A DNA stretch of 64,000 nt from Escherichia virus TH41. Below the pieces are notes generated by a model. That model made no database searches. It was not told the DNA's origin and saw only the letters and a list, made by a program, of their open reading frames with translations. Position numbers and translations under genes: made by a program. The stretch is from the sequence record MT446412.1; one strand, written 5' to 3'. Positions 23,275 to 34,849 of the stretch are shown in pieces; the stretch's first letter is position 1; the number at the start of each line of letters is the position of its first letter.

Positions 23275-23302
23275 CCCATCAACTACTGATGAGGATAATA
23301 AA

Positions 23303-28984: not shown

Positions 28985-29218
28985 ATGGGTGGTTTCGTTA
29001 ATATCAAAACCTTTACGCATCCAGCTGGTGAAGGTAAAGAAGTTAAAGGTGTTGAAGTATCTGTTCCGTTTGAAATCTATTCAAATGAGCACCGTATTGC
29101 CAATGCTCATTATCAGACTTTTCCTTCCGAAAAGGCCGCTTATGTCACCGTAGCGTCTAGTGCAGCTGATTGGCGAACTAAGAACGCGGCGATGTTTACG
29201 CCTACCCCAGTAGTTTAA
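28985..29218 (+). CDS. soc: Small outer capsid protein Soc
   Basis: 77 aa; VNIKTF and AHYQTFPSEKAAY blocks match remembered T4 Soc. Confidence 0.8.
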   Translation: MGGFVNIKTFTHPAGEGKEVKGVEVSVPFEIYSNEHRIANAHYQTFPSEKAAYVTVASSAADWRTKNAAMFTPTPVV

Positions 29219-29294: not shown

Positions 29295-29492
29295 ATGTTA
29301 AACCGTTGGATTAAACCAAATAAAACTTTAGATGAAGTTATTGCCCATGATGTCCATTTTAAGTATGGTCTGGGTGTGTTTGATGAGGTTGTCGTACATT
29401 CATTCATGATGCACGATGATGATTCTTTAGAATTCAATATTGAAATCCGTTGTGATGATGGTAAAGTTGAATTTAAACGAGGTTTTCTATGA
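29295..29492 (+). CDS. Hypothetical protein (65 aa)
   Basis: ATG preceded by GAGGAG; TATAAT at 29264-29269. Confidence 0.5.
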   Translation: MLNRWIKPNKTLDEVIAHDVHFKYGLGVFDEVVVHSFMMHDDDSLEFNIEIRCDDGKVEFKRGFL

Positions 29493-29830
29493 TTAGTTGG
29501 CTCAAGAATTTATTCAAGACCAAACCGAATGAAGGTGTGGTTCCCGTTAGCCTACCGGATGTTAAGCTAAGAGAATATGTTTACATGGGCGATGGCATGA
29601 TGGAAGAAGTGGTCAAATCAAAATCAAAAGACCTATATTCTACAATGTCAGAAGAAGACTTACAAAAACGTTTAACTCGACTGCAAGAACAAAGAGCTCA
29701 AGCCCAAAGCAGTATCGATACTACTTCGATTGTGGTTACCGCTGCTGCAGTTAGTTCGTGGACTGGTGATTCGTCTTATTCCTCCTATGATTCAGGAAGC
29801 TGCGATTCGTCTTCCAGCTCGTGTGATTAA
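29489..29830 (+). CDS. Hypothetical protein (113 aa), Ser/Cys-rich C-terminus
   Basis: ORF track; ATGA overlap. Confidence 0.5.
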   Translation: MISWLKNLFKTKPNEGVVPVSLPDVKLREYVYMGDGMMEEVVKSKSKDLYSTMSEEDLQKRLTRLQEQRAQAQSSIDTTSIVVTAAAVSSWTGDSSYSSYDSGSCDSSSSSCD

Positions 29831-30025
29831 ATGAGAATTACAAGTTGGCTTAAAGATTGGTTGGTTACTCCAGGGATTGATGATTCCTGGGTGGCCAGAG
29901 CCGAGGAAGAAATGCAGCGCGAAGCTGAAGAATGGGCTGCTACAGGGCTTAAAGCTATGCAGGAAAAGAAGACCGAACGAGCTGCGCTTAAACTGATGCG
30001 TGATATCTACGGAGATAAATCATGA
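29831..30025 (+). CDS. Hypothetical protein (64 aa)
   Basis: ORF track. Confidence 0.45.
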
Positions 30026-30171
30026 CACAAGAAGAAGCTGAACGCCGGGCAAAAGAAGCACTGGATTTGCTTTTGAAAATTGGCAGTAAAATGATGGAAG
30101 AAAATGAAAAGTACATCAAGGAAAATAAAGTTCCTGATGGTCCATTAGTTGGTAAGAGGAAAACATTATGA
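30022..30171 (+). CDS. Hypothetical protein (49 aa)
   Basis: ATGA overlaps on both sides; under track cutoff. Confidence 0.35.
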
Positions 30172-30656
30172 AAGTATATGAATTAGAATTCTATGTCCGT
30201 GATTCTGCTGGGCAAACACGACCTTACGATGCAACAGCCTGTCTTATCTTTGCATATAATGGCATGGATTCGGTTACTGAGTTGGAAACAAAATTAATGA
30301 ACCTGACGATGCCAGAAAACGTTATGCTGAAGGTATTTCATAGAAAAAACGTTAATGTGGCTGAAGGGTGTCCGTTTACTGTTTCCGAAGCTCTGCATAT
30401 CAAAGGCTATCGTCACCCGGACCCATATGCAGAAGGTACTGCGGATATTTTCTATAAAGATAGAGATAAAATGGCCACTGAACGTCTCCAAGGTCGCACA
30501 TATCTGATTTCCACTACCGACGACCTTGCTGAAGTTGAACGTCAGATTTGGAAGCACTTTGATATCGGCTTGCGCTTTACTTTAACAGAAGAAGCTATTC
30601 AAGATACTAAAATGCGTGCTCGTATGTATGGTTACGGTCCTATCGGTGGCTACTAA
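30168..30656 (+). CDS. Hypothetical protein (162 aa); size and position correspond to T4 mrh
   Basis: ORF track; synteny only. Confidence 0.55.
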
Positions 30657-30835
30657 TGGATTTATTTGAACTTTTTGAAGAGCCTAAAGCTCCTACGGAA
30701 GCCCGTGTGGACCTAGTTGACGAACTTGATGCGATTATACAGAAGCATGGTTTTAGTCTCCCAATGGAAGTTCTACGCGACCTGGCCTCATATTACGACG
30801 ACCCACCTCCATGGGCACCATGGGTGAAACGATGA
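30656..30835 (+). CDS. Hypothetical protein (59 aa)
   Basis: TAATG overlap upstream, ATGA overlap downstream. Confidence 0.4.
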   Translation: MDLFELFEEPKAPTEARVDLVDELDAIIQKHGFSLPMEVLRDLASYYDDPPPWAPWVKR

Positions 30836-31065
30836 ACTGGTTAACAAATATCCCCACATCGGCGCTGGATATCGACCGTAAACACGCTCATAAGGAAATT
30901 GAGCAACAAAAAATTAATCGCTTACAAAGGATTAAGACTGAATCCAAGACAATTAAAGCCGAACGCCCGACAGAATCGAAAAGTTCTTACTCATCATATC
31001 AATCTCCGATTGGCATGGCCGCAGACATTGCAGTCTTTGGCGTCCCACTTGGAGTATTTAAGTAG
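30832..31065 (+). CDS. Hypothetical protein (77 aa)
   Basis: ATG within track ORF 30811..31065. Confidence 0.45.
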   Translation: MNWLTNIPTSALDIDRKHAHKEIEQQKINRLQRIKTESKTIKAERPTESKSSYSSYQSPIGMAADIAVFGVPLGVFK

Positions 31066-31121
31066 TTTACTTACTCCCCTCCTAATGACATAATGGTCTT
31101 TCTTACAACAGAGAGGCCATT

Positions 31122-31682
31122 ATGAACATCATCAAATCTGATACCGAACCCAACCAGTTAAAATTTAATGAAATGGAGATAGCTTCATTATTTGAATGCC
31201 GCGCATCAAAGGTTGATAAGACCTTACATTCAAACATCAACTCAATCATCAAGTCAAGGTTGTCTATACCTGATACAGTCTTGTATCGTGGGGTAACCCA
31301 GCAAGAGATTGATTTGTTAGATGAAGCAAAAGAATCAATGCAACCTTTTGAATTTGGAAGGATAACCTCCTTTACAGAAGACTATGGTATTGCCAGGGAT
31401 TTTGCTGCAATGGAATATGTGTCAAGGACTATCATCAGATTGAATCATACAAAAGCTTTTTGTTATCATGATGCGATGCGCAAAATCGCGCTTGACGTTC
31501 CACTGGAATTCTTCAATACAGCCTCTGGTTCCGAACAGGCAGCAACGTTAAGGCGTGAAGAATACATGGACATGATTGATTCTGAGCTTGAATGGTTTGT
31601 TCCAGTTGACCAGAAATTCGTGATAGTTGATGCTGGATTTGTTGATGATTATTATGTTCTTGACTGTGTACAAGAGCAATAA
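31122..31682 (+). CDS. modA: ADP-ribosyltransferase, ModA-like
   Basis: 186 aa; R-S-E triad candidates LYRG, ITSFTED, ELEWFVP; adjacent paralog; syntenic with T4 modA/modB. Confidence 0.6.
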   Translation: MNIIKSDTEPNQLKFNEMEIASLFECRASKVDKTLHSNINSIIKSRLSIPDTVLYRGVTQQEIDLLDEAKESMQPFEFGRITSFTEDYGIARDFAAMEYVSRTIIRLNHTKAFCYHDAMRKIALDVPLEFFNTASGSEQAATLRREEYMDMIDSELEWFVPVDQKFVIVDAGFVDDYYVLDCVQEQ

Positions 31683-31695
31683 GACACGTTAAGAT
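31666..31695 (+). promoter_or_regulatory. Early promoter GTGTAC-N18-TAAGAT inside 3' end of modA-like gene
   Basis: Followed by leader TCCTATCAACTACTGATGAGGATAATAAA and ATG 31727. Confidence 0.5.
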
Positions 31696-31726
31696 GTTCC
31701 TATCAACTACTGATGAGGATAATAAA

Positions 31727-32341
31727 ATGCTGTACACTGATGACGTTTTGAATGGAATTATTGACATTGCCGCTTCTAGTGAGTCTTTTCGTAACCAATG
31801 TCAAGCGGAGATTGATGCTCTTTATACAGATAATGAACAATCAGTACTCTGGCAGTGTATGGAAAATAAACCCGACCTGATTCAAGAAGACTTAACCAGG
31901 ATTATCCGCAACAATCTGAATACTGCACCACCTGCGGCATTGTTCCGTGGTATATCAAAGAAAACTATGGAATACCTGGAAGATTTCAGATATGTTGGTG
32001 CAACGATTGAGTTCAATCGTGTGATGAGTTTTTCCAGGGACTGGCAGGTTGCAAGAAATTTCGCATCATACAGTTTCTATGGCACAAGGAATATTTTCTG
32101 CATAAACAATGCACCATATGCGTATAACTATCAGGAAGCAATCTTTAAAATGATTTGTGGCGCTCCTCCTGAAGAGTTCAATGGTGCATATCCAGAAGCA
32201 ACCAGGAAGTCAAACTTACACCTGGTTAATGATGAGGATGAGTTTATGTTTCCCGCTGGGACTACGCTTCGCGTAGACTTGATTGAGACACACCCATTGA
32301 ATAACCTTTATACTGTTTGGCATTTGACTGTTTTGAACTAA
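31727..32341 (+). CDS. modB: ADP-ribosyltransferase, ModB-like
   Basis: 204 aa; LFRG, MSFSRD, EDEFMFP motifs; ATG follows conserved leader (track start 31694 is upstream). Confidence 0.6.
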   Translation: MLYTDDVLNGIIDIAASSESFRNQCQAEIDALYTDNEQSVLWQCMENKPDLIQEDLTRIIRNNLNTAPPAALFRGISKKTMEYLEDFRYVGATIEFNRVMSFSRDWQVARNFASYSFYGTRNIFCINNAPYAYNYQEAIFKMICGAPPEEFNGAYPEATRKSNLHLVNDEDEFMFPAGTTLRVDLIETHPLNNLYTVWHLTVLN

Positions 32342-32400
32342 CTAAAGACCTTAGAACCATTATACACAGTAAAAATAAAAGCGTTAAAGGCGAAAAAGTA

Positions 32401-32429
32401 GTGTACACACCCAATGGATGGTGTATAAT
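32401..32429 (+). promoter_or_regulatory. Early promoter GTGTAC-N17-TATAAT
   Basis: Preceded by AAAAGTA; followed by GAATCCATACTGAGTT block; ATG 32477. Confidence 0.6.
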
Positions 32430-32476
32430 GAATCCATACTGAGTTGCCAAATCGTCCGTAAGATGAGAAAAATATC

Positions 32477-33223
32477 ATGACTTTATCAAAAACCAAAACG
32501 TTGAAAGTTAAACGTCGTCTGGAACACACTCAAGCTTCCGCTAAACGCCGCGGTAAAGACTTTAACCTGGATTTTGATTATCTGGTTAATATTCTTGACC
32601 AAAAAGTTTGTGCTTATTCTGGTGAGACATTTAATAACTCTATTGAAGGTGAGAAGTTATCATTAGAGCGTTTTAACAATGATATTGGTTATATCAAGGG
32701 TAATGTTATTCCTGTTAAAAAGAAATACAATACCATGCGTTCTGATTGGTCCTTGGATGAGCTTAAACAACGTCGCGATGATGTTGCTGTAAAAATTGCT
32801 CGCCCCTCTGCCAAGAAGATTGAAAAGTTAAATCTGACTTCAGAGAAATGGGAACAGATTAAAAAGTCATATACTCATATCAAGAACATCCAGCACAAAC
32901 GTGATAATCGCGTTAAGCATTATGCTCAAATGAGTAAATCAGAGCAGTCCAAAGAAAACCAATTAAAAATGGTTGCTCTGAAGGCTCGCATTGATGGTTC
33001 CCGTGTTGCGGAAGGACATGAGCTTACTAAATTGAATGTCCTGCTCAAAGGTAATGACTGGAAAGTTACCAAGAAATTAACTGATGCTGAAACGCTTTTT
33101 GATTGCTATGATAAAATCATTCAAGGTCTTGAGCGTTTTGAGAAGATTGGTTTTATTGGTAAATTAAAACTGAAACGTGGTCTGCCTTTGAACGCGTCAA
33201 TTTTTAAACTGATTAGAGGTTAA
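32477..33223 (+). CDS. Hypothetical basic protein (248 aa); position corresponds to T4 srd
   Basis: ORF track; synteny only. Confidence 0.55.
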   Translation: MTLSKTKTLKVKRRLEHTQASAKRRGKDFNLDFDYLVNILDQKVCAYSGETFNNSIEGEKLSLERFNNDIGYIKGNVIPVKKKYNTMRSDWSLDELKQRRDDVAVKIARPSAKKIEKLNLTSEKWEQIKKSYTHIKNIQHKRDNRVKHYAQMSKSEQSKENQLKMVALKARIDGSRVAEGHELTKLNVLLKGNDWKVTKKLTDAETLFDCYDKIIQGLERFEKIGFIGKLKLKRGLPLNASIFKLIRG

Positions 33224-33227
33224 TGTG

Positions 33228-33524
33228 ATGTACTACGCATATGTGCTGGTTCACAAAGATAAAGATGGTTTTGAACGCCCATTGGAGTATGATGGAAAGG
33301 TTACCTTATACACCACAAAACCGGGCGCAGAGTATGAACTTGCCAACTATTTATATACTACAAACCGCTATTTACGCATGGGACGTATTGAAACACGGTA
33401 TACTCCCAGAAAATGGTGGTTTGATAAGCGGGAAACAAAAACTGTTTTTCCTACTGAAGAACACGCACGAGAATTGAAATTAGTTTTAGATACTTTATAT
33501 GTTAAGCGAGTAAAATTGGCATGA
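33228..33524 (+). CDS. Hypothetical protein (98 aa)
   Basis: ATG preceded by GAGG; track start 33225 is GTG. Confidence 0.45.
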   Translation: MYYAYVLVHKDKDGFERPLEYDGKVTLYTTKPGAEYELANYLYTTNRYLRMGRIETRYTPRKWWFDKRETKTVFPTEEHARELKLVLDTLYVKRVKLA

Positions 33525-34849
33525 TTAAATTTGAAGACTTGAACACAGGACAAAAAGAAGCTTTTGATTATATCACTGAAGCTATTCAGCGACGTTCAGG
33601 GGAATGTATCACTCTGAATGGTCCAGCTGGTACAGGTAAGACCACTCTGACAAAATTTGTCATTGACCATCTAGTGCGTAATGGAGTTATGGGAATTGTG
33701 CTTGCTGCGCCAACTCACCAGGCGAAAAAAGTTTTATCTAAATTGTCTGGTCAAACCGCGAATACAATCCATAGTATCCTGAAGATTAACCCGACCACAT
33801 ATGAAGACCAAAACGTTTTTGAACAACGCGAAATGCCTGACATGTCAAAATGCAATGTTCTGGTTTGTGATGAAGCAAGTATGTATGACGGGTCTCTGTT
33901 TAAGATTATTCTTAACTCTGTTCCTGAATGGTGTACTATTCTTGGGATTGGTGATATGCACCAGCTGCAGCCAGTTGACCCAGGAAGCACACAACAAAAG
34001 ATAAGCCCATTCTTTACGCATCCTAAGTTCAAACAGATTCATCTGACTGAGGTCATGCGAAGCAATGCTCCTATCATTGAAGTGGCGACAGAAATTCGTA
34101 ATGGTGGTTGGTTCCGTGACTGTATGTATGATGGTCATGGTGTACAGGGTTTCACCTCACAAACCGCTTTAAAGGATTTCATGATAAACTATTTCAGTAT
34201 TGTAAAAGATGCTGATATGTTGATGGAAAACAGGATGTATGCGTACACGAATAAATCAGTTGAAAAACTGAACAATATTATTCGTCGCAAGCTCTATGAA
34301 ACGGATAAAGCATTTTTACCGTATGAAGTCCTGGTTATGCAAGAGCCACACATGAAAGAGCTGGAATTTGAAGGCAAGAAATTCAGCGAAACCATTTTTA
34401 ATAATGGTCAGTTGGTTCGCATCAAGGATTGCAAATACACTTCCACCATTCTCCGTTGTAAAGGCGAATCGCACCAGTTAGTGATTAATTACTGGGACCT
34501 GGAAGTTGAGTCAATTGATGAAGATGAAGAATATCAGGTTGACCGCATTAAAGTTTTACCAGAAGACCAGCAACCAAAATTCCAGGCATATCTGGCTAAA
34601 GTTGCTGACACATACAAACAGATGAAAGCCGCTGGTAAACGTCCGGAGTGGAAAGACTTCTGGAAAGCTCGCCGGACCTTCTTGAAAGTTCGTGCTCTTC
34701 CGGTCAGTACAATTCACAAGGCCCAGGGCGTTTCAGTGGACAAAGCATTCATCTATACTCCATGCATCCATATGGCCGAAGCTTCATTAGCGAGCCAGTT
34801 GGCTTATGTAGGAATCACACGAGCGAGGTACGACGCATATTATGTATAA
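33521..34849 (+). CDS. dda: DNA helicase Dda (SF1)
   Basis: 442 aa; Walker A GPAGTGKTT, blocks AAPTHQAKK, LKINP, FHKAQG, YVGITRAR match T4 Dda. Confidence 0.93.
   Translation: MIKFEDLNTGQKEAFDYITEAIQRRSGECITLNGPAGTGKTTLTKFVIDHLVRNGVMGIVLAAPTHQAKKVLSKLSGQTANTIHSILKINPTTYEDQNVFEQREMPDMSKCNVLVCDEASMYDGSLFKIILNSVPEWCTILGIGDMHQLQPVDPGSTQQKISPFFTHPKFKQIHLTEVMRSNAPIIEVATEIRNGGWFRDCMYDGHGVQGFTSQTALKDFMINYFSIVKDADMLMENRMYAYTNKSVEKLNNIIRRKLYETDKAFLPYEVLVMQEPHMKELEFEGKKFSETIFNNGQLVRIKDCKYTSTILRCKGESHQLVINYWDLEVESIDEDEEYQVDRIKVLPEDQQPKFQAYLAKVADTYKQMKAAGKRPEWKDFWKARRTFLKVRALPVSTIHKAQGVSVDKAFIYTPCIHMAEASLASQLAYVGITRARYDAYYV

Follow-up and report, generated by a model that had tools for sequence, protein, structure and literature searches.

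A tandem pair of Mod-family ADP-ribosyltransferase genes in Escherichia virus TH41 and a predicted promoter-leader cassette between them

The 64,000 nucleotide stretch of Escherichia virus TH41 analysed here (sequence record MT446412.1, referred to as the window) very probably encodes two tandem arginine-type mono-ADP-ribosyltransferases of the Mod family, their activity being predicted, at the slot held by modB and modA in phage T4. In the order of transcription, the first gene (g1; 31122-31682, plus strand, 186 aa) takes the modB position and the second (g2; 31727-32341, plus strand, 204 aa) the modA position. Sequence, catalytic motif, predicted fold and synteny together support the membership of both proteins in the T4 Mod family. 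The 44-nt spacer separating the genes appears to hold one of the early promoter-leader cassettes that recur in this phage, and g2 is therefore predicted to be transcribed probably alone as well as by read-through from g1. Both genes are already known as annotated modB/modA homologues of a sequenced phage genus and, because of this existing annotation, the finding is correct but ordinary. What sets this locus apart from T4 is its expression layout, with the second gene having its own cassette as opposed to a 4-nt overlap with the first, and this cassette also marks a border of allele exchange within the genus.

Genomic locus and family membership

The source of the window is a T4-like coliphage of the genus Gaprivervirus. 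Three genomes of this genus, UPEC01, VR20 and VR7, share 93-97% identity with the window, and nucleotide identity over 30000-34000 amounts to 97.4% for UPEC01 and 96.7% for VR20. The annotated genes of the UPEC01 and VR20 records run modB, modA, srd, dda as in the window, and T4 has this order too. The first-pass annotation had described two adjacent open reading frames of 186 and 204 aa lying between soc and dda. Both frames are indeed present, and homology has placed soc upstream (28985-29218, plus strand; 47% identity to T4 Soc, E 3e-23) and three genes downstream, namely srd (32477-33223), dda.1 (33225-33524, between srd and dda) and the dda helicase gene (33521-34849, plus strand; Pfam Dda SH3_14 at 2e-33 along with AAA_30, and PHROG 325 at 3e-167). 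Inside this soc-to-dda interval, the pair is located between homologues of modA.2 and srd. A predicted early-type promoter of srd (32401-32429, plus strand), comprising GTGTACA, a 16-nt spacer and TATAAT with 10 of 12 consensus matches in a promoter scan, bounds the pair downstream, and the blocks flanking it have been kept in T4, RB69 and IME08. An Rfam scan of 30500-33000 returned no meaningful match.

The R-S-E triads that had been quoted for the two proteins were all found, in the right order. The arginine belongs to an aromatic-R-G motif in both (LYRG from residue 54 in g1, LFRG from residue 72 in g2), followed by an S-x-S/T motif (S83-F-T, with SFT starting at residue 83 in g1; S101-F-S, with SFS starting at residue 101 in g2) and an E-x-E motif (E155-L-E157, within ELEW from residue 155 in g1; E170-D-E172, within EDEF from residue 170 in g2). 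The corresponding codons are located at 31287-31289 (R56), 31368-31370 (S83), 31584-31586 (E155) and 31590-31592 (E157) in g1, and at 31946-31948 (R74), 32027-32029 (S101), 32234-32236 (E170) and 32240-32242 (E172) in g2. Alignment to T4 ModA and ModB, which had been suggested as a check, showed the catalytic arginine and glutamate residues to be conserved, with R73/S99/E171/E173 of T4 ModB and R72/S96/E163/E165 of T4 ModA matching R56/S83/E155/E157 of g1 and R74/S101/E170/E172 of g2. None of the columns holding the R, S and E-x-E residues varies across alignments of 11-19 Mod proteins, and R73 of T4 ModB has been reported to be important for catalysis (PMC10468400).

Profile comparisons place both proteins in PHROG 832, "RNA polymerase ADP-ribosylase", with E-values of 2.8e-27 for g1 and 2.1e-38 for g2. 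The Pfam family PF26816 (Mod_ADP_RT) is assigned to relatives of both, including g1 relatives with 96% and 61% identity; these precomputed assignments cover the genes of phage L016 as well as relatives that share 96-99% identity with the window proteins. Local Pfam-A and NCBIfam scans of g1 and g2 gave nothing above threshold, with DRAT sub-threshold in Pfam, and a PDB sequence search with both proteins found no relatives. The alignments used for AlphaFold had just 18 rows because the word-indexed homologue search yielded only 2, 12 and 17 clusters. The resulting AlphaFold2 models reached a pLDDT of 86.7 and a pTM of 0.80 for g1, and a pLDDT of 92.1 and a pTM of 0.85 for g2, with the arginine and serine modelled on the first two core strands and the E-x-E motif at a strand start. 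Foldseek comparison with the PDB produced 88 matches at E<=1e-3 for g1, the best 50 of which are all ADP-ribosyltransferases headed by HopU1, C3 and iota Ia, and 105 matches at the same cut-off for g2, the best 50 of which belong to the R-S-E type of ADP-ribosyltransferase, with C3, Certhrax, Tre1 and CDTa among them. The proposed fit to the T4 ModA/ModB pair is one on which PHROG 832, PF26816, the invariant catalytic residues, the predicted fold and synteny all agree.

Predicted expression of the two genes

The candidate early promoter of g2 (31666-31695, plus strand) consists of GTGTACA (31666-31672), a 17-nt spacer and the -10 element TAAGAT (31690-31695). It precedes a stereotyped leader, CCTATCAACTACTGATGAGGA (31699-31719, plus strand), which ends in the Shine-Dalgarno sequence GAGGA (31715-31719) and is separated from the g2 ATG at 31727 by TAATAAA. 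The cassette as a whole can be written as GTGTACA-17-TAAGAT, a 25-nt leader with GAGGA, and ATG. The promoter and leader of the second gene had been thought to be embedded in the 3' end of the first. A promoter-like site does exist there, but only its -35 element lies inside g1, over the codons C-V-Q, with the g1 TAA stop (31680-31682) falling in the spacer and both the -10 element and the leader sitting in the 44-nt intergenic gap. On sequence grounds, the internal early promoter of g2 is a good prediction that is partly supported, being only partly internal. A longer form of g2, starting at ATG 31694 and giving 215 aa with the same end at 32341, is unlikely to be used, judging from the sequence: this ATG falls inside the promoter's -10 hexamer, the MLY start of the shorter form is common to SEA1, EcS1, Pp2 and VR20, and the longer start has no ATG counterpart in IME08.

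With up to 3 mismatches allowed, the leader occurs six times in the window where 0 copies are expected, each copy following a -10 element and standing at a fixed distance before an ATG. Sites of the form GT[GT]TAC-16/18-TAnnnT, a family to which the srd promoter belongs, number 17 on the plus strand and 1 on the minus strand, with 2.8 expected per strand. In this promoter family, the g2 -10 element is the weakest, agreeing with the consensus at 4 of 6 positions, and the g2 promoter agrees at 8 of 12 positions overall and stays below the threshold of a generic promoter scan. That scan gave 18 sites in total, against 18.6 by shuffle; one of its sites, located inside g1 at 31627-31655 (TTGATG-17-TATTAT), was rejected, having none of the phage early-promoter features. 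Folding of the g2 cassette gave a z-score of -2.06, with 6 of 200 shuffles as good.

The weak -10 element, which has no TGn extension, and the sub-threshold score are also what would be seen if the cassette were a decayed relic and g2, lacking a working promoter, relied entirely on read-through from the g1 promoter, in the manner of the overlapping modB-modA of T4, a phage that does without a promoter between these genes and whose records AF158101 and NC_000866 annotate no promoter features in this region. No terminator was predicted between g1 and g2, and the g2 ribosome binding site has an unpaired probability of 0.46 on read-through RNA (control 0.52+-0.15, which does not support masking); it is about half accessible on the long transcript, so read-through RNA could be translated. 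Nonetheless, we regard expression by read-through alone as rather unlikely, since the most critical -10 positions (T1, A2 and T6) and the 17-nt spacing have been retained, and the cassette is invariant across five Gaprivervirus genomes, the promoter being identical in VR20, VR7, UPEC01 and CJ20 apart from spacer changes. The divergent relative L016 has a near-consensus version at the same site (GTGTACA-17-TGT-TATGAT), IME08 and RB69 have clear intergenic promoters of the same geometry before their downstream mod gene, and the g2 leader is an exact copy of leaders found behind stronger promoters. Taking both sides into account, transcription of g2 from its own predicted promoter in addition to read-through is the reading we prefer.

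The cassette coincides with a change in sequence relatedness inside the genus. Phage CJ20 is about 98% identical to the window through g1, falls to 46-82% within g2 and to 38% around the g2 stop, and returns to 76-98% downstream of g2, by about 32350-32475. This drop starts with g2, just past the cassette. At the protein level, g2 shares 98% identity with its VR20 counterpart, and the allele found in CJ20, also a Gaprivervirus, is a different one, with 68% identity to g2 and 81% to the protein of the Dhakavirus IME08. From these alignments, the g2 cassette lies at the border of a module exchanged within the genus.

For the first gene, transcription is predicted to start from an early-type promoter (31065-31094, plus strand) made up of GTTTACT (31065-31071), a 17-nt spacer, TGa (31086-31088) and CATAAT (31089-31094), which scored 9 of 12 consensus matches, with TG, in the promoter scan. 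The TAG stop of the upstream open reading frame (31063-31065) abuts the -35 element, and T4, RB69, IME08, VR20, CJ20 and L016 show the same TAG-GTTTAC...-10 arrangement 5' of their first mod gene.

A separate observation concerns a hairpin, supported by covariation across T4-like genera, in which the -10 element of g1's own promoter pairs with the ribosome binding site and start codon of g1. In the window this leader hairpin (31089-31124, plus strand) has 15 bp, its 5' arm CAUAAUGGUCUUUCU (31089-31103) being formed by the -10 hexamer and a further 9 nt, and its 3' arm AGAGAGGCCAUUAUG (31110-31124) by the Shine-Dalgarno sequence and AUG of g1. The transcription start predicted for g1, at about 31101, is inside the 5' arm. 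Folding of 31040-31125 gave a z-score of -4.6, with 0 of 200 shuffles as good, and the same pairing folds in 13 phages. The proportion of paired cells over 11 distinct sequences is 96.2%, compared with 35-51% in slid controls, and compensatory changes were detected in 5 of 12 pairs. The unpaired probability of the g1 ribosome binding site is 0.13 on a long transcript and 0.65 on a promoter-proximal one, the control value with the upstream sequence shuffled being 0.42+-0.09, which suggests that this site would be masked by the conserved hairpin on longer read-through RNAs. A general rule by which all early cassettes mask the downstream ribosome binding site on read-through RNA was rejected (14 cassettes, p = 0.27 against a shuffled-upstream control), g1 being the only one of the cassettes tested with a clear masking effect. 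The conserved pairing 5' of the first mod gene offers a testable explanation for the tight timing of these toxic enzymes.

Relationship to ModA and ModB

In these genomes, modB and modA are positional names and do not constitute statements on targets. T4 ModB RNAylates host proteins, a property which makes this caveat matter more. By analogy with T4, both enzymes would be early products that use NAD+ to modify arginine residues of host proteins, with the ModB-like enzyme possibly also using NAD-capped RNA. Likely targets would be Arg265 of RNA polymerase alpha for one of them and the translation factors S1, EF-Tu and trigger factor for its partner, and the sequence does not decide between the two assignments.

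Pairwise comparison gave g2 a score of 229 with T4 ModB (36% identity) and of 172 with T4 ModA (34%), and the best score of g1 was likewise with T4 ModB (199, compared with 118 for T4 ModA). In a neighbour-joining tree, g2 and the downstream genes of RB69, IME08 and CJ20 form a clade at 100% bootstrap, which T4 ModA joins at 46%, and g1 is a long branch placed with T4 ModB at 8%. As the deep nodes have bootstrap values of just 8-46%, the use of this tree for a ModA/ModB assignment was abandoned, and neither the tree nor the scores assign g1 and g2 one-to-one to T4 ModA and ModB.

The higher score of g2 with ModB raises the question of whether the positional names might be functionally wrong, g2 being a ModB-like enzyme acting on translation factors and performing RNAylation and g1 a separate, lineage-specific Mod subtype with other targets. 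In addition to its long branch with no supported partner, g1, which is annotated as modB in VR20 and VR7 and is 97% identical to the VR20 protein, has at most 30% identity to the Mod proteins of other phage genera in a comparison of 19 proteins. It also lacks the N-terminal helices found in other Mod proteins, and only three g1-like proteins, at about 40% identity or above, were present among 1.84 billion representative proteins. The relationships of T4 ModA point the other way: it shares 29-35% identity with the downstream genes, whose clade it also joins, but only 22-28% with the upstream ones, and it has the NKPD and PAG motifs and a loop deletion in common with g2. Synteny also favours orthology by position. 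Such a reversal of roles is judged rather unlikely, if worth bearing in mind when the names are read. It is far less credible that g1 is a degenerating, catalytically dead paralogue, given that this short (186 aa) and fast-evolving protein, with its disordered N-terminus (residues 1-11, pLDDT <50), has R56, S83, E155 and E157 kept in relatives at 61%, 39% and 38% identity, an open reading frame that 33 phage records carry intact at 90-99% identity, a confidently predicted fold, and its own conserved promoter and regulatory hairpin, both predicted.

Two bolder readings are tentative, and we give them somewhat less than an even chance. In one, a conserved hairpin whose 5' arm is the -10 element of the gene's own early promoter would gate the mod gene that comes first, or stands alone, in T4-like phages; in the other, g1 would act on host targets of its own and represent a third Mod subtype, not an orthologue of ModB. 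If the gating is true, the ribosome binding site would be exposed only on transcripts begun at the gene's own early promoter, and synthesis of a toxic ADP-ribosyltransferase would be limited to the period of early promoter activity.

Comparison with known systems

The closest characterised counterparts are T4 ModB (NP_049636) and ModA (NP_049635), which share with g1 and g2 the slot between modA.2 and srd, the tandem order, PHROG 832 and PF26816, the R-S-ExE residues and a length of about 200 aa. Nonetheless, g1 and g2 are only 28-36% identical to the T4 proteins, and in T4 the two genes share 4 nt and have no promoter between them, whereas a 44-nt spacer with the candidate promoter-leader cassette separates g1 and g2. 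The modB/modA genes of the Gaprivervirus phages VR20, VR7 and UPEC01 present essentially no difference, gene order and intergenic sequences being as in the window. Resemblance extends to bacterial ADP-ribosyltransferase toxins of the R-S-E clade (C3 exoenzyme, iota toxin Ia/CDTa/VIP2, HopU1, Tre1 and Certhrax), which have in common with the two phage proteins the predicted fold, the arginine on strand 1, the S-x-S/T motif on strand 2 and the E-x-E motif. Sequence identity to these toxins is only 9-16% and TM-scores are 0.4-0.55 and, unlike them, g1 and g2 have no toxin delivery or immunity partners, being predicted early proteins of a phage that would act inside the infected cell.

The g2 cassette is similar to the PeSL, or promoter-early stem-loop, cassettes of T4-type phages (Arbiol et al. 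2010, PMC2839356; Comeau et al. 2014, PMC4122927). Both comprise an upstream stop codon, sigma70-like -35 and -10 elements 17 nt apart, a Shine-Dalgarno sequence and an ATG, both are repeated, and both occur at the borders of exchanged modules. The stem-loops of PeSL overlap the promoter, whereas that of the g2 copy is weak (z -2.1), and the g2 cassette further differs in its -35 consensus, GT(G/T)TACA, and in having this element in coding sequence instead of an intergenic region.

For the g1 hairpin, the nearest parallels are the T4 genes e, soc, 49 and I-TevI, where transcripts from distal promoters fold into a hairpin that hides the Shine-Dalgarno sequence and AUG, and a proximal promoter that starts inside the hairpin frees the ribosome binding site (PMC3014915). 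The mod genes are absent from the cases given in that review. By analogy, the same masking logic is proposed for g1, with one difference in timing and construction: the T4 cases use late promoters to delay expression, whereas the promoter embedded in the g1 hairpin is of the early type and its -10 element is itself the 5' arm.

Genomic setting and family membership of the tandem pair

Two adjacent ORFs on the plus strand, g1 (31122-31682, 186 aa) and g2 (ending at 32341), had been described in the first-pass annotation as tandem ModA/ModB-like ADP-ribosyltransferase paralogs lying between soc and dda, and the coordinates, lengths and motifs claimed for both match the sequence exactly. The motifs are LYRG (R56), SFT (S83) and ELEW (E155, E157) in g1, and LFRG (R74), SFS (S101) and EDEF (E170, E172) in g2. 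Across 30000-34000, identity reaches 97.4% with UPEC01, 96.7% with vB_EcoM_VR20 and ~94% with VR7, which are Gaprivervirus phages (Straboviridae, Tevenvirinae). The position also holds, with the T4 gene order kept from soc to dda when read along transcription: soc (28985-29218, plus strand, 47% identity to T4 Soc) is followed by homologues of mrh.2, mrh.1, srh, modA.4, modA.3 (30168-30656) and modA.2 (30656-30835), a small ORF (30811-31065), g1, g2, srd (32477-33223), dda.1 (33225-33524) and dda (33521-34849, plus strand). Since the records of the near-identical phages VR20 and VR7 name g1 modB and g2 modA, the tandem pair is genuine, and public genomes already carry its annotation. The observation is confirmed for a pair already known, and the value added here is small, consisting of regulatory details and the question of which Mod type g1 is.

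Other features of the region have also been observed. The modA.2, modA.3 and modA.4 homologues (30022-30835) are labelled [quoted passage not shown] in MW233709 (UPEC01), MW250787 (UPEC07) and PP582757 (KLB31), evidently an annotation error caused by a name collision with bacterial ModA. Two small ORFs of the mrh-modA.2 region (29489-29830 and 30811-31065) have a Ser/Tyr-rich low-complexity motif, SSYSSY, in common; the former carries a C-terminal tail rich in Ser/Asp/Cys, while the latter is without a counterpart in T4, and phage CJ20 has other sequence in its place. Upstream of srd (32401-32476) there is a strong early-type promoter, GTGTACA-16-TATAAT, with a stem-loop between its -35 and -10, followed by a leader, CGTCCGTAAGATGAGAAAAATATCATG, which is almost identical in T4, RB69, IME08 and the divergent metagenomic relative L016, the surroundings having diverged.

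Several lines of evidence support the Mod ADP-ribosyltransferase interpretation, with profile match, motifs, predicted fold and synteny in agreement. Both proteins match PHROG 832, "RNA polymerase ADP-ribosylase" (E 2.8e-27 for g1, 2.1e-38 for g2), and their relatives in a large protein collection carry Pfam PF26816, Mod_ADP_RT; scans of both proteins against local Pfam-A and NCBIfam copies gave no match over threshold, and a search of solved structures by sequence found none related to either. In an alignment of 19 Mod proteins, representing ten Tevenvirinae genera, the Arg (aromatic-R-G), the Ser (S-x-S/T) and both Glu (E-x-E) are invariant, as they are in further Mod alignments, and those of g1 and g2 align with R73/S99/E171/E173 of T4 ModB and R72/S96/E163/E165 of T4 ModA. 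The R-S-EXE motif of arginine-specific transferases is present in both T4 proteins, and R73 of ModB is catalytically important (PMC10468400). Loss of the catalytic Arg or Glu, the observation that would have overturned the proposal, is not seen in either protein. Confident AlphaFold2 models (g1 pLDDT 86.7, pTM 0.80; g2 pLDDT 92.1, pTM 0.85) were compared with the PDB using Foldseek, where the matches listed were only R-S-E-type ADP-ribosyltransferases, including HopU1, C3 exoenzymes, iota Ia, CDTa, VIP2, Certhrax and Tre1 (E-values to 1e-6 - 2e-7, TM-scores 0.4-0.55). In T4, the mod genes are expressed early; ModA uses NAD to ADP-ribosylate the arginine Arg265 of RNA polymerase alpha, and ModB modifies S1, EF-Tu and trigger factor and also performs RNAylation (PMC2988021, PMC3014915, PMC10468400). 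By analogy, g1 and g2 would be expressed early and would ADP-ribosylate host proteins on arginine in an NAD-dependent fashion, the putative targets of the pair being those of the T4 enzymes, with RNAylation as a further possible activity.

ModA versus ModB assignment

By position, g1 occupies the modB slot and g2 the modA slot. In Smith-Waterman comparisons with the T4 proteins, g1 scores 199 against ModB and 118 against ModA, and g2 scores 229 and 172, respectively. A neighbour-joining tree (300 bootstraps) groups g2, at 100% support, with the downstream mod genes of RB69 (Mosigvirus), IME08 (Dhakavirus) and CJ20; T4 ModA attaches to this clade at just 46%. g1 forms a long branch without a supported partner, does not exceed 30% identity to the Mod proteins of other genera compared, and lacks the N-terminal helices found in other Mod proteins. 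A search of 1.84 billion representative proteins yielded only three relatives at ~40% identity or above, and because these retain all catalytic residues, g1 is very unlikely to be a decaying gene. Two mod genes occupy the locus in Tequatrovirus, Mosigvirus, Dhakavirus and Gaprivervirus, and a single one in Kanagawavirus, Jiaodavirus, Gelderlandvirus, Kagamiyamavirus and Mosugukvirus (compared loci L005-L009, L011 and L012). As sequence gives a less clear picture than position, the modB and modA names in Gaprivervirus records should be read as positional; sequence does not assign the targets.

A predicted promoter-leader cassette ahead of g2

The only report of a generic promoter scan near g2 was a site at 31627-31655, rejected as chance-level given a scan total of 18 hits against 18.6 expected from shuffles. 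In both IME08 and RB69, a clear intergenic early promoter precedes the second mod gene (GTTTACA or GTGTACA, 17 nt, TGnTACTAT), and alignment revealed a plus-strand site of this geometry at g2, comprising a -35 element GTGTACA (31666-31672), a 17-nt spacer, a -10 element TAAGAT (31690-31695) without TGn, and the leader CCTATCAACTACTGATGAGGA (31699-31719), followed by TAATAAA and ATG 31727. Two start codons had to be considered, ATG 31694 (215 aa) and ATG 31727 (204 aa). Since the former falls within the predicted -10 hexamer and the latter has GAGGA 8 nt upstream, the cassette settles the predicted start as ATG 31727, whose MLY start agrees with other Mod proteins.

The motif GT[GT]TAC-16/18-TAnnnT occurs 17 times on the plus strand of the window and once on the minus strand, with 2.8 expected per strand. 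The 21-nt leader CCYATCAACTACTGATGAGGA has six plus-strand copies against none expected (5702, 23275, 24898, 31699, 35837 and 46900), each with a GT(G/T)TACA-17-TAnnnT promoter before it and an ATG at a fixed distance after it; g2 and the copy at 23275 have the same 28 nt immediately ahead of the ATG. The g2 cassette is invariant, spacer changes aside, in VR20, VR7, UPEC01 and CJ20. L016, whose g1 homologue is 61% identical, has GTGTACA-17-TGT-TATGAT at this site, with a near-consensus extended -10, and as in the window its -35 lies in the first gene's last codons (C-V-Q) and the stop codon in the spacer. Shared geometry, repetition, conservation and the L016 site therefore make the candidate g2 promoter well founded as a prediction. 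An early promoter embedded in the 3' end of g1 had been proposed, and this stands in part: the cassette is repeated and conserved, but only its -35 lies within g1, and its -10 is the weakest of its promoter family.

Promoter-early stem-loop (PeSL) units combine the stop codon of the upstream gene, a sigma70-like promoter and a stem-loop with a Shine-Dalgarno sequence and start codon, and are repeated across plastic regions, where they mediate module exchange (Arbiol et al., 2010, PMC2839356; Comeau et al., 2014, PMC4122927). The g2 cassette fits this concept in its stop codon, promoter-like site, Shine-Dalgarno sequence and start codon, its stem-loop being weak (z -2.06, with 6 of 200 shuffles folding as well), and on sequence grounds the six promoter-leader units are PeSL-like cassettes of predicted early expression. 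Compared with CJ20, of the same genus, identity is ~98% through g1, 46-82% within g2, and again 76-98% from ~32332 on, downstream of g2 and upstream of srd. The exchanged stretch (31700-32350 compared) starts just beyond the cassette, and the CJ20 g2 allele has 81% protein identity to that of IME08 (Dhakavirus), a profile consistent with module exchange at PeSL-type cassettes.

A conserved hairpin at the start of g1

An early-type promoter (GTTTACT, 31065-31071; TGa-CATAAT, 31086-31094; plus strand) also precedes g1, where 31089-31103 pairs with 31110-31124 in a perfect 15-bp plus-strand hairpin (region folding z-score -4.6). Its 5' arm is the -10 hexamer with the next 9 nt, and its 3' arm contains the g1 Shine-Dalgarno sequence and AUG. 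The arrangement folds in 13/13 phages examined and in L016, with differing stem sequences, and lies upstream of the first mod gene in L002 (T4), L003, L005-L012 and L016. In an alignment of 11 sequences, 96.2% of cells are paired (35-51% in slid controls), compensatory changes are seen at five of the 12 pairs, and none of 500 shuffles reaches the covariation score; in the T4-like genera examined, such changes have preserved the hairpin.

A sigma70 RNA beginning ~7 nt past the -10 would be devoid of the 5' arm, and the computed unpaired probability of the g1 ribosome-binding site is 0.65 on the promoter-proximal RNA and 0.13 on a longer RNA, against 0.42±0.09 with shuffled upstream sequence. 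This points to translation of the first mod gene from promoter-proximal transcripts alone, and we infer that read-through transcripts would be translated poorly. The computed probabilities do not support such masking on read-through RNA for g2 or as a general cassette property. The logic proposed at g1 is that of T4 genes e, soc, 49 and I-TevI, hairpin cases listed in a review that does not count the mod genes among them (PMC3014915), although at g1 the promoter is early. In T4, modB and modA share a 4-nt overlap with no intervening promoter, whereas one is predicted ahead of g2.
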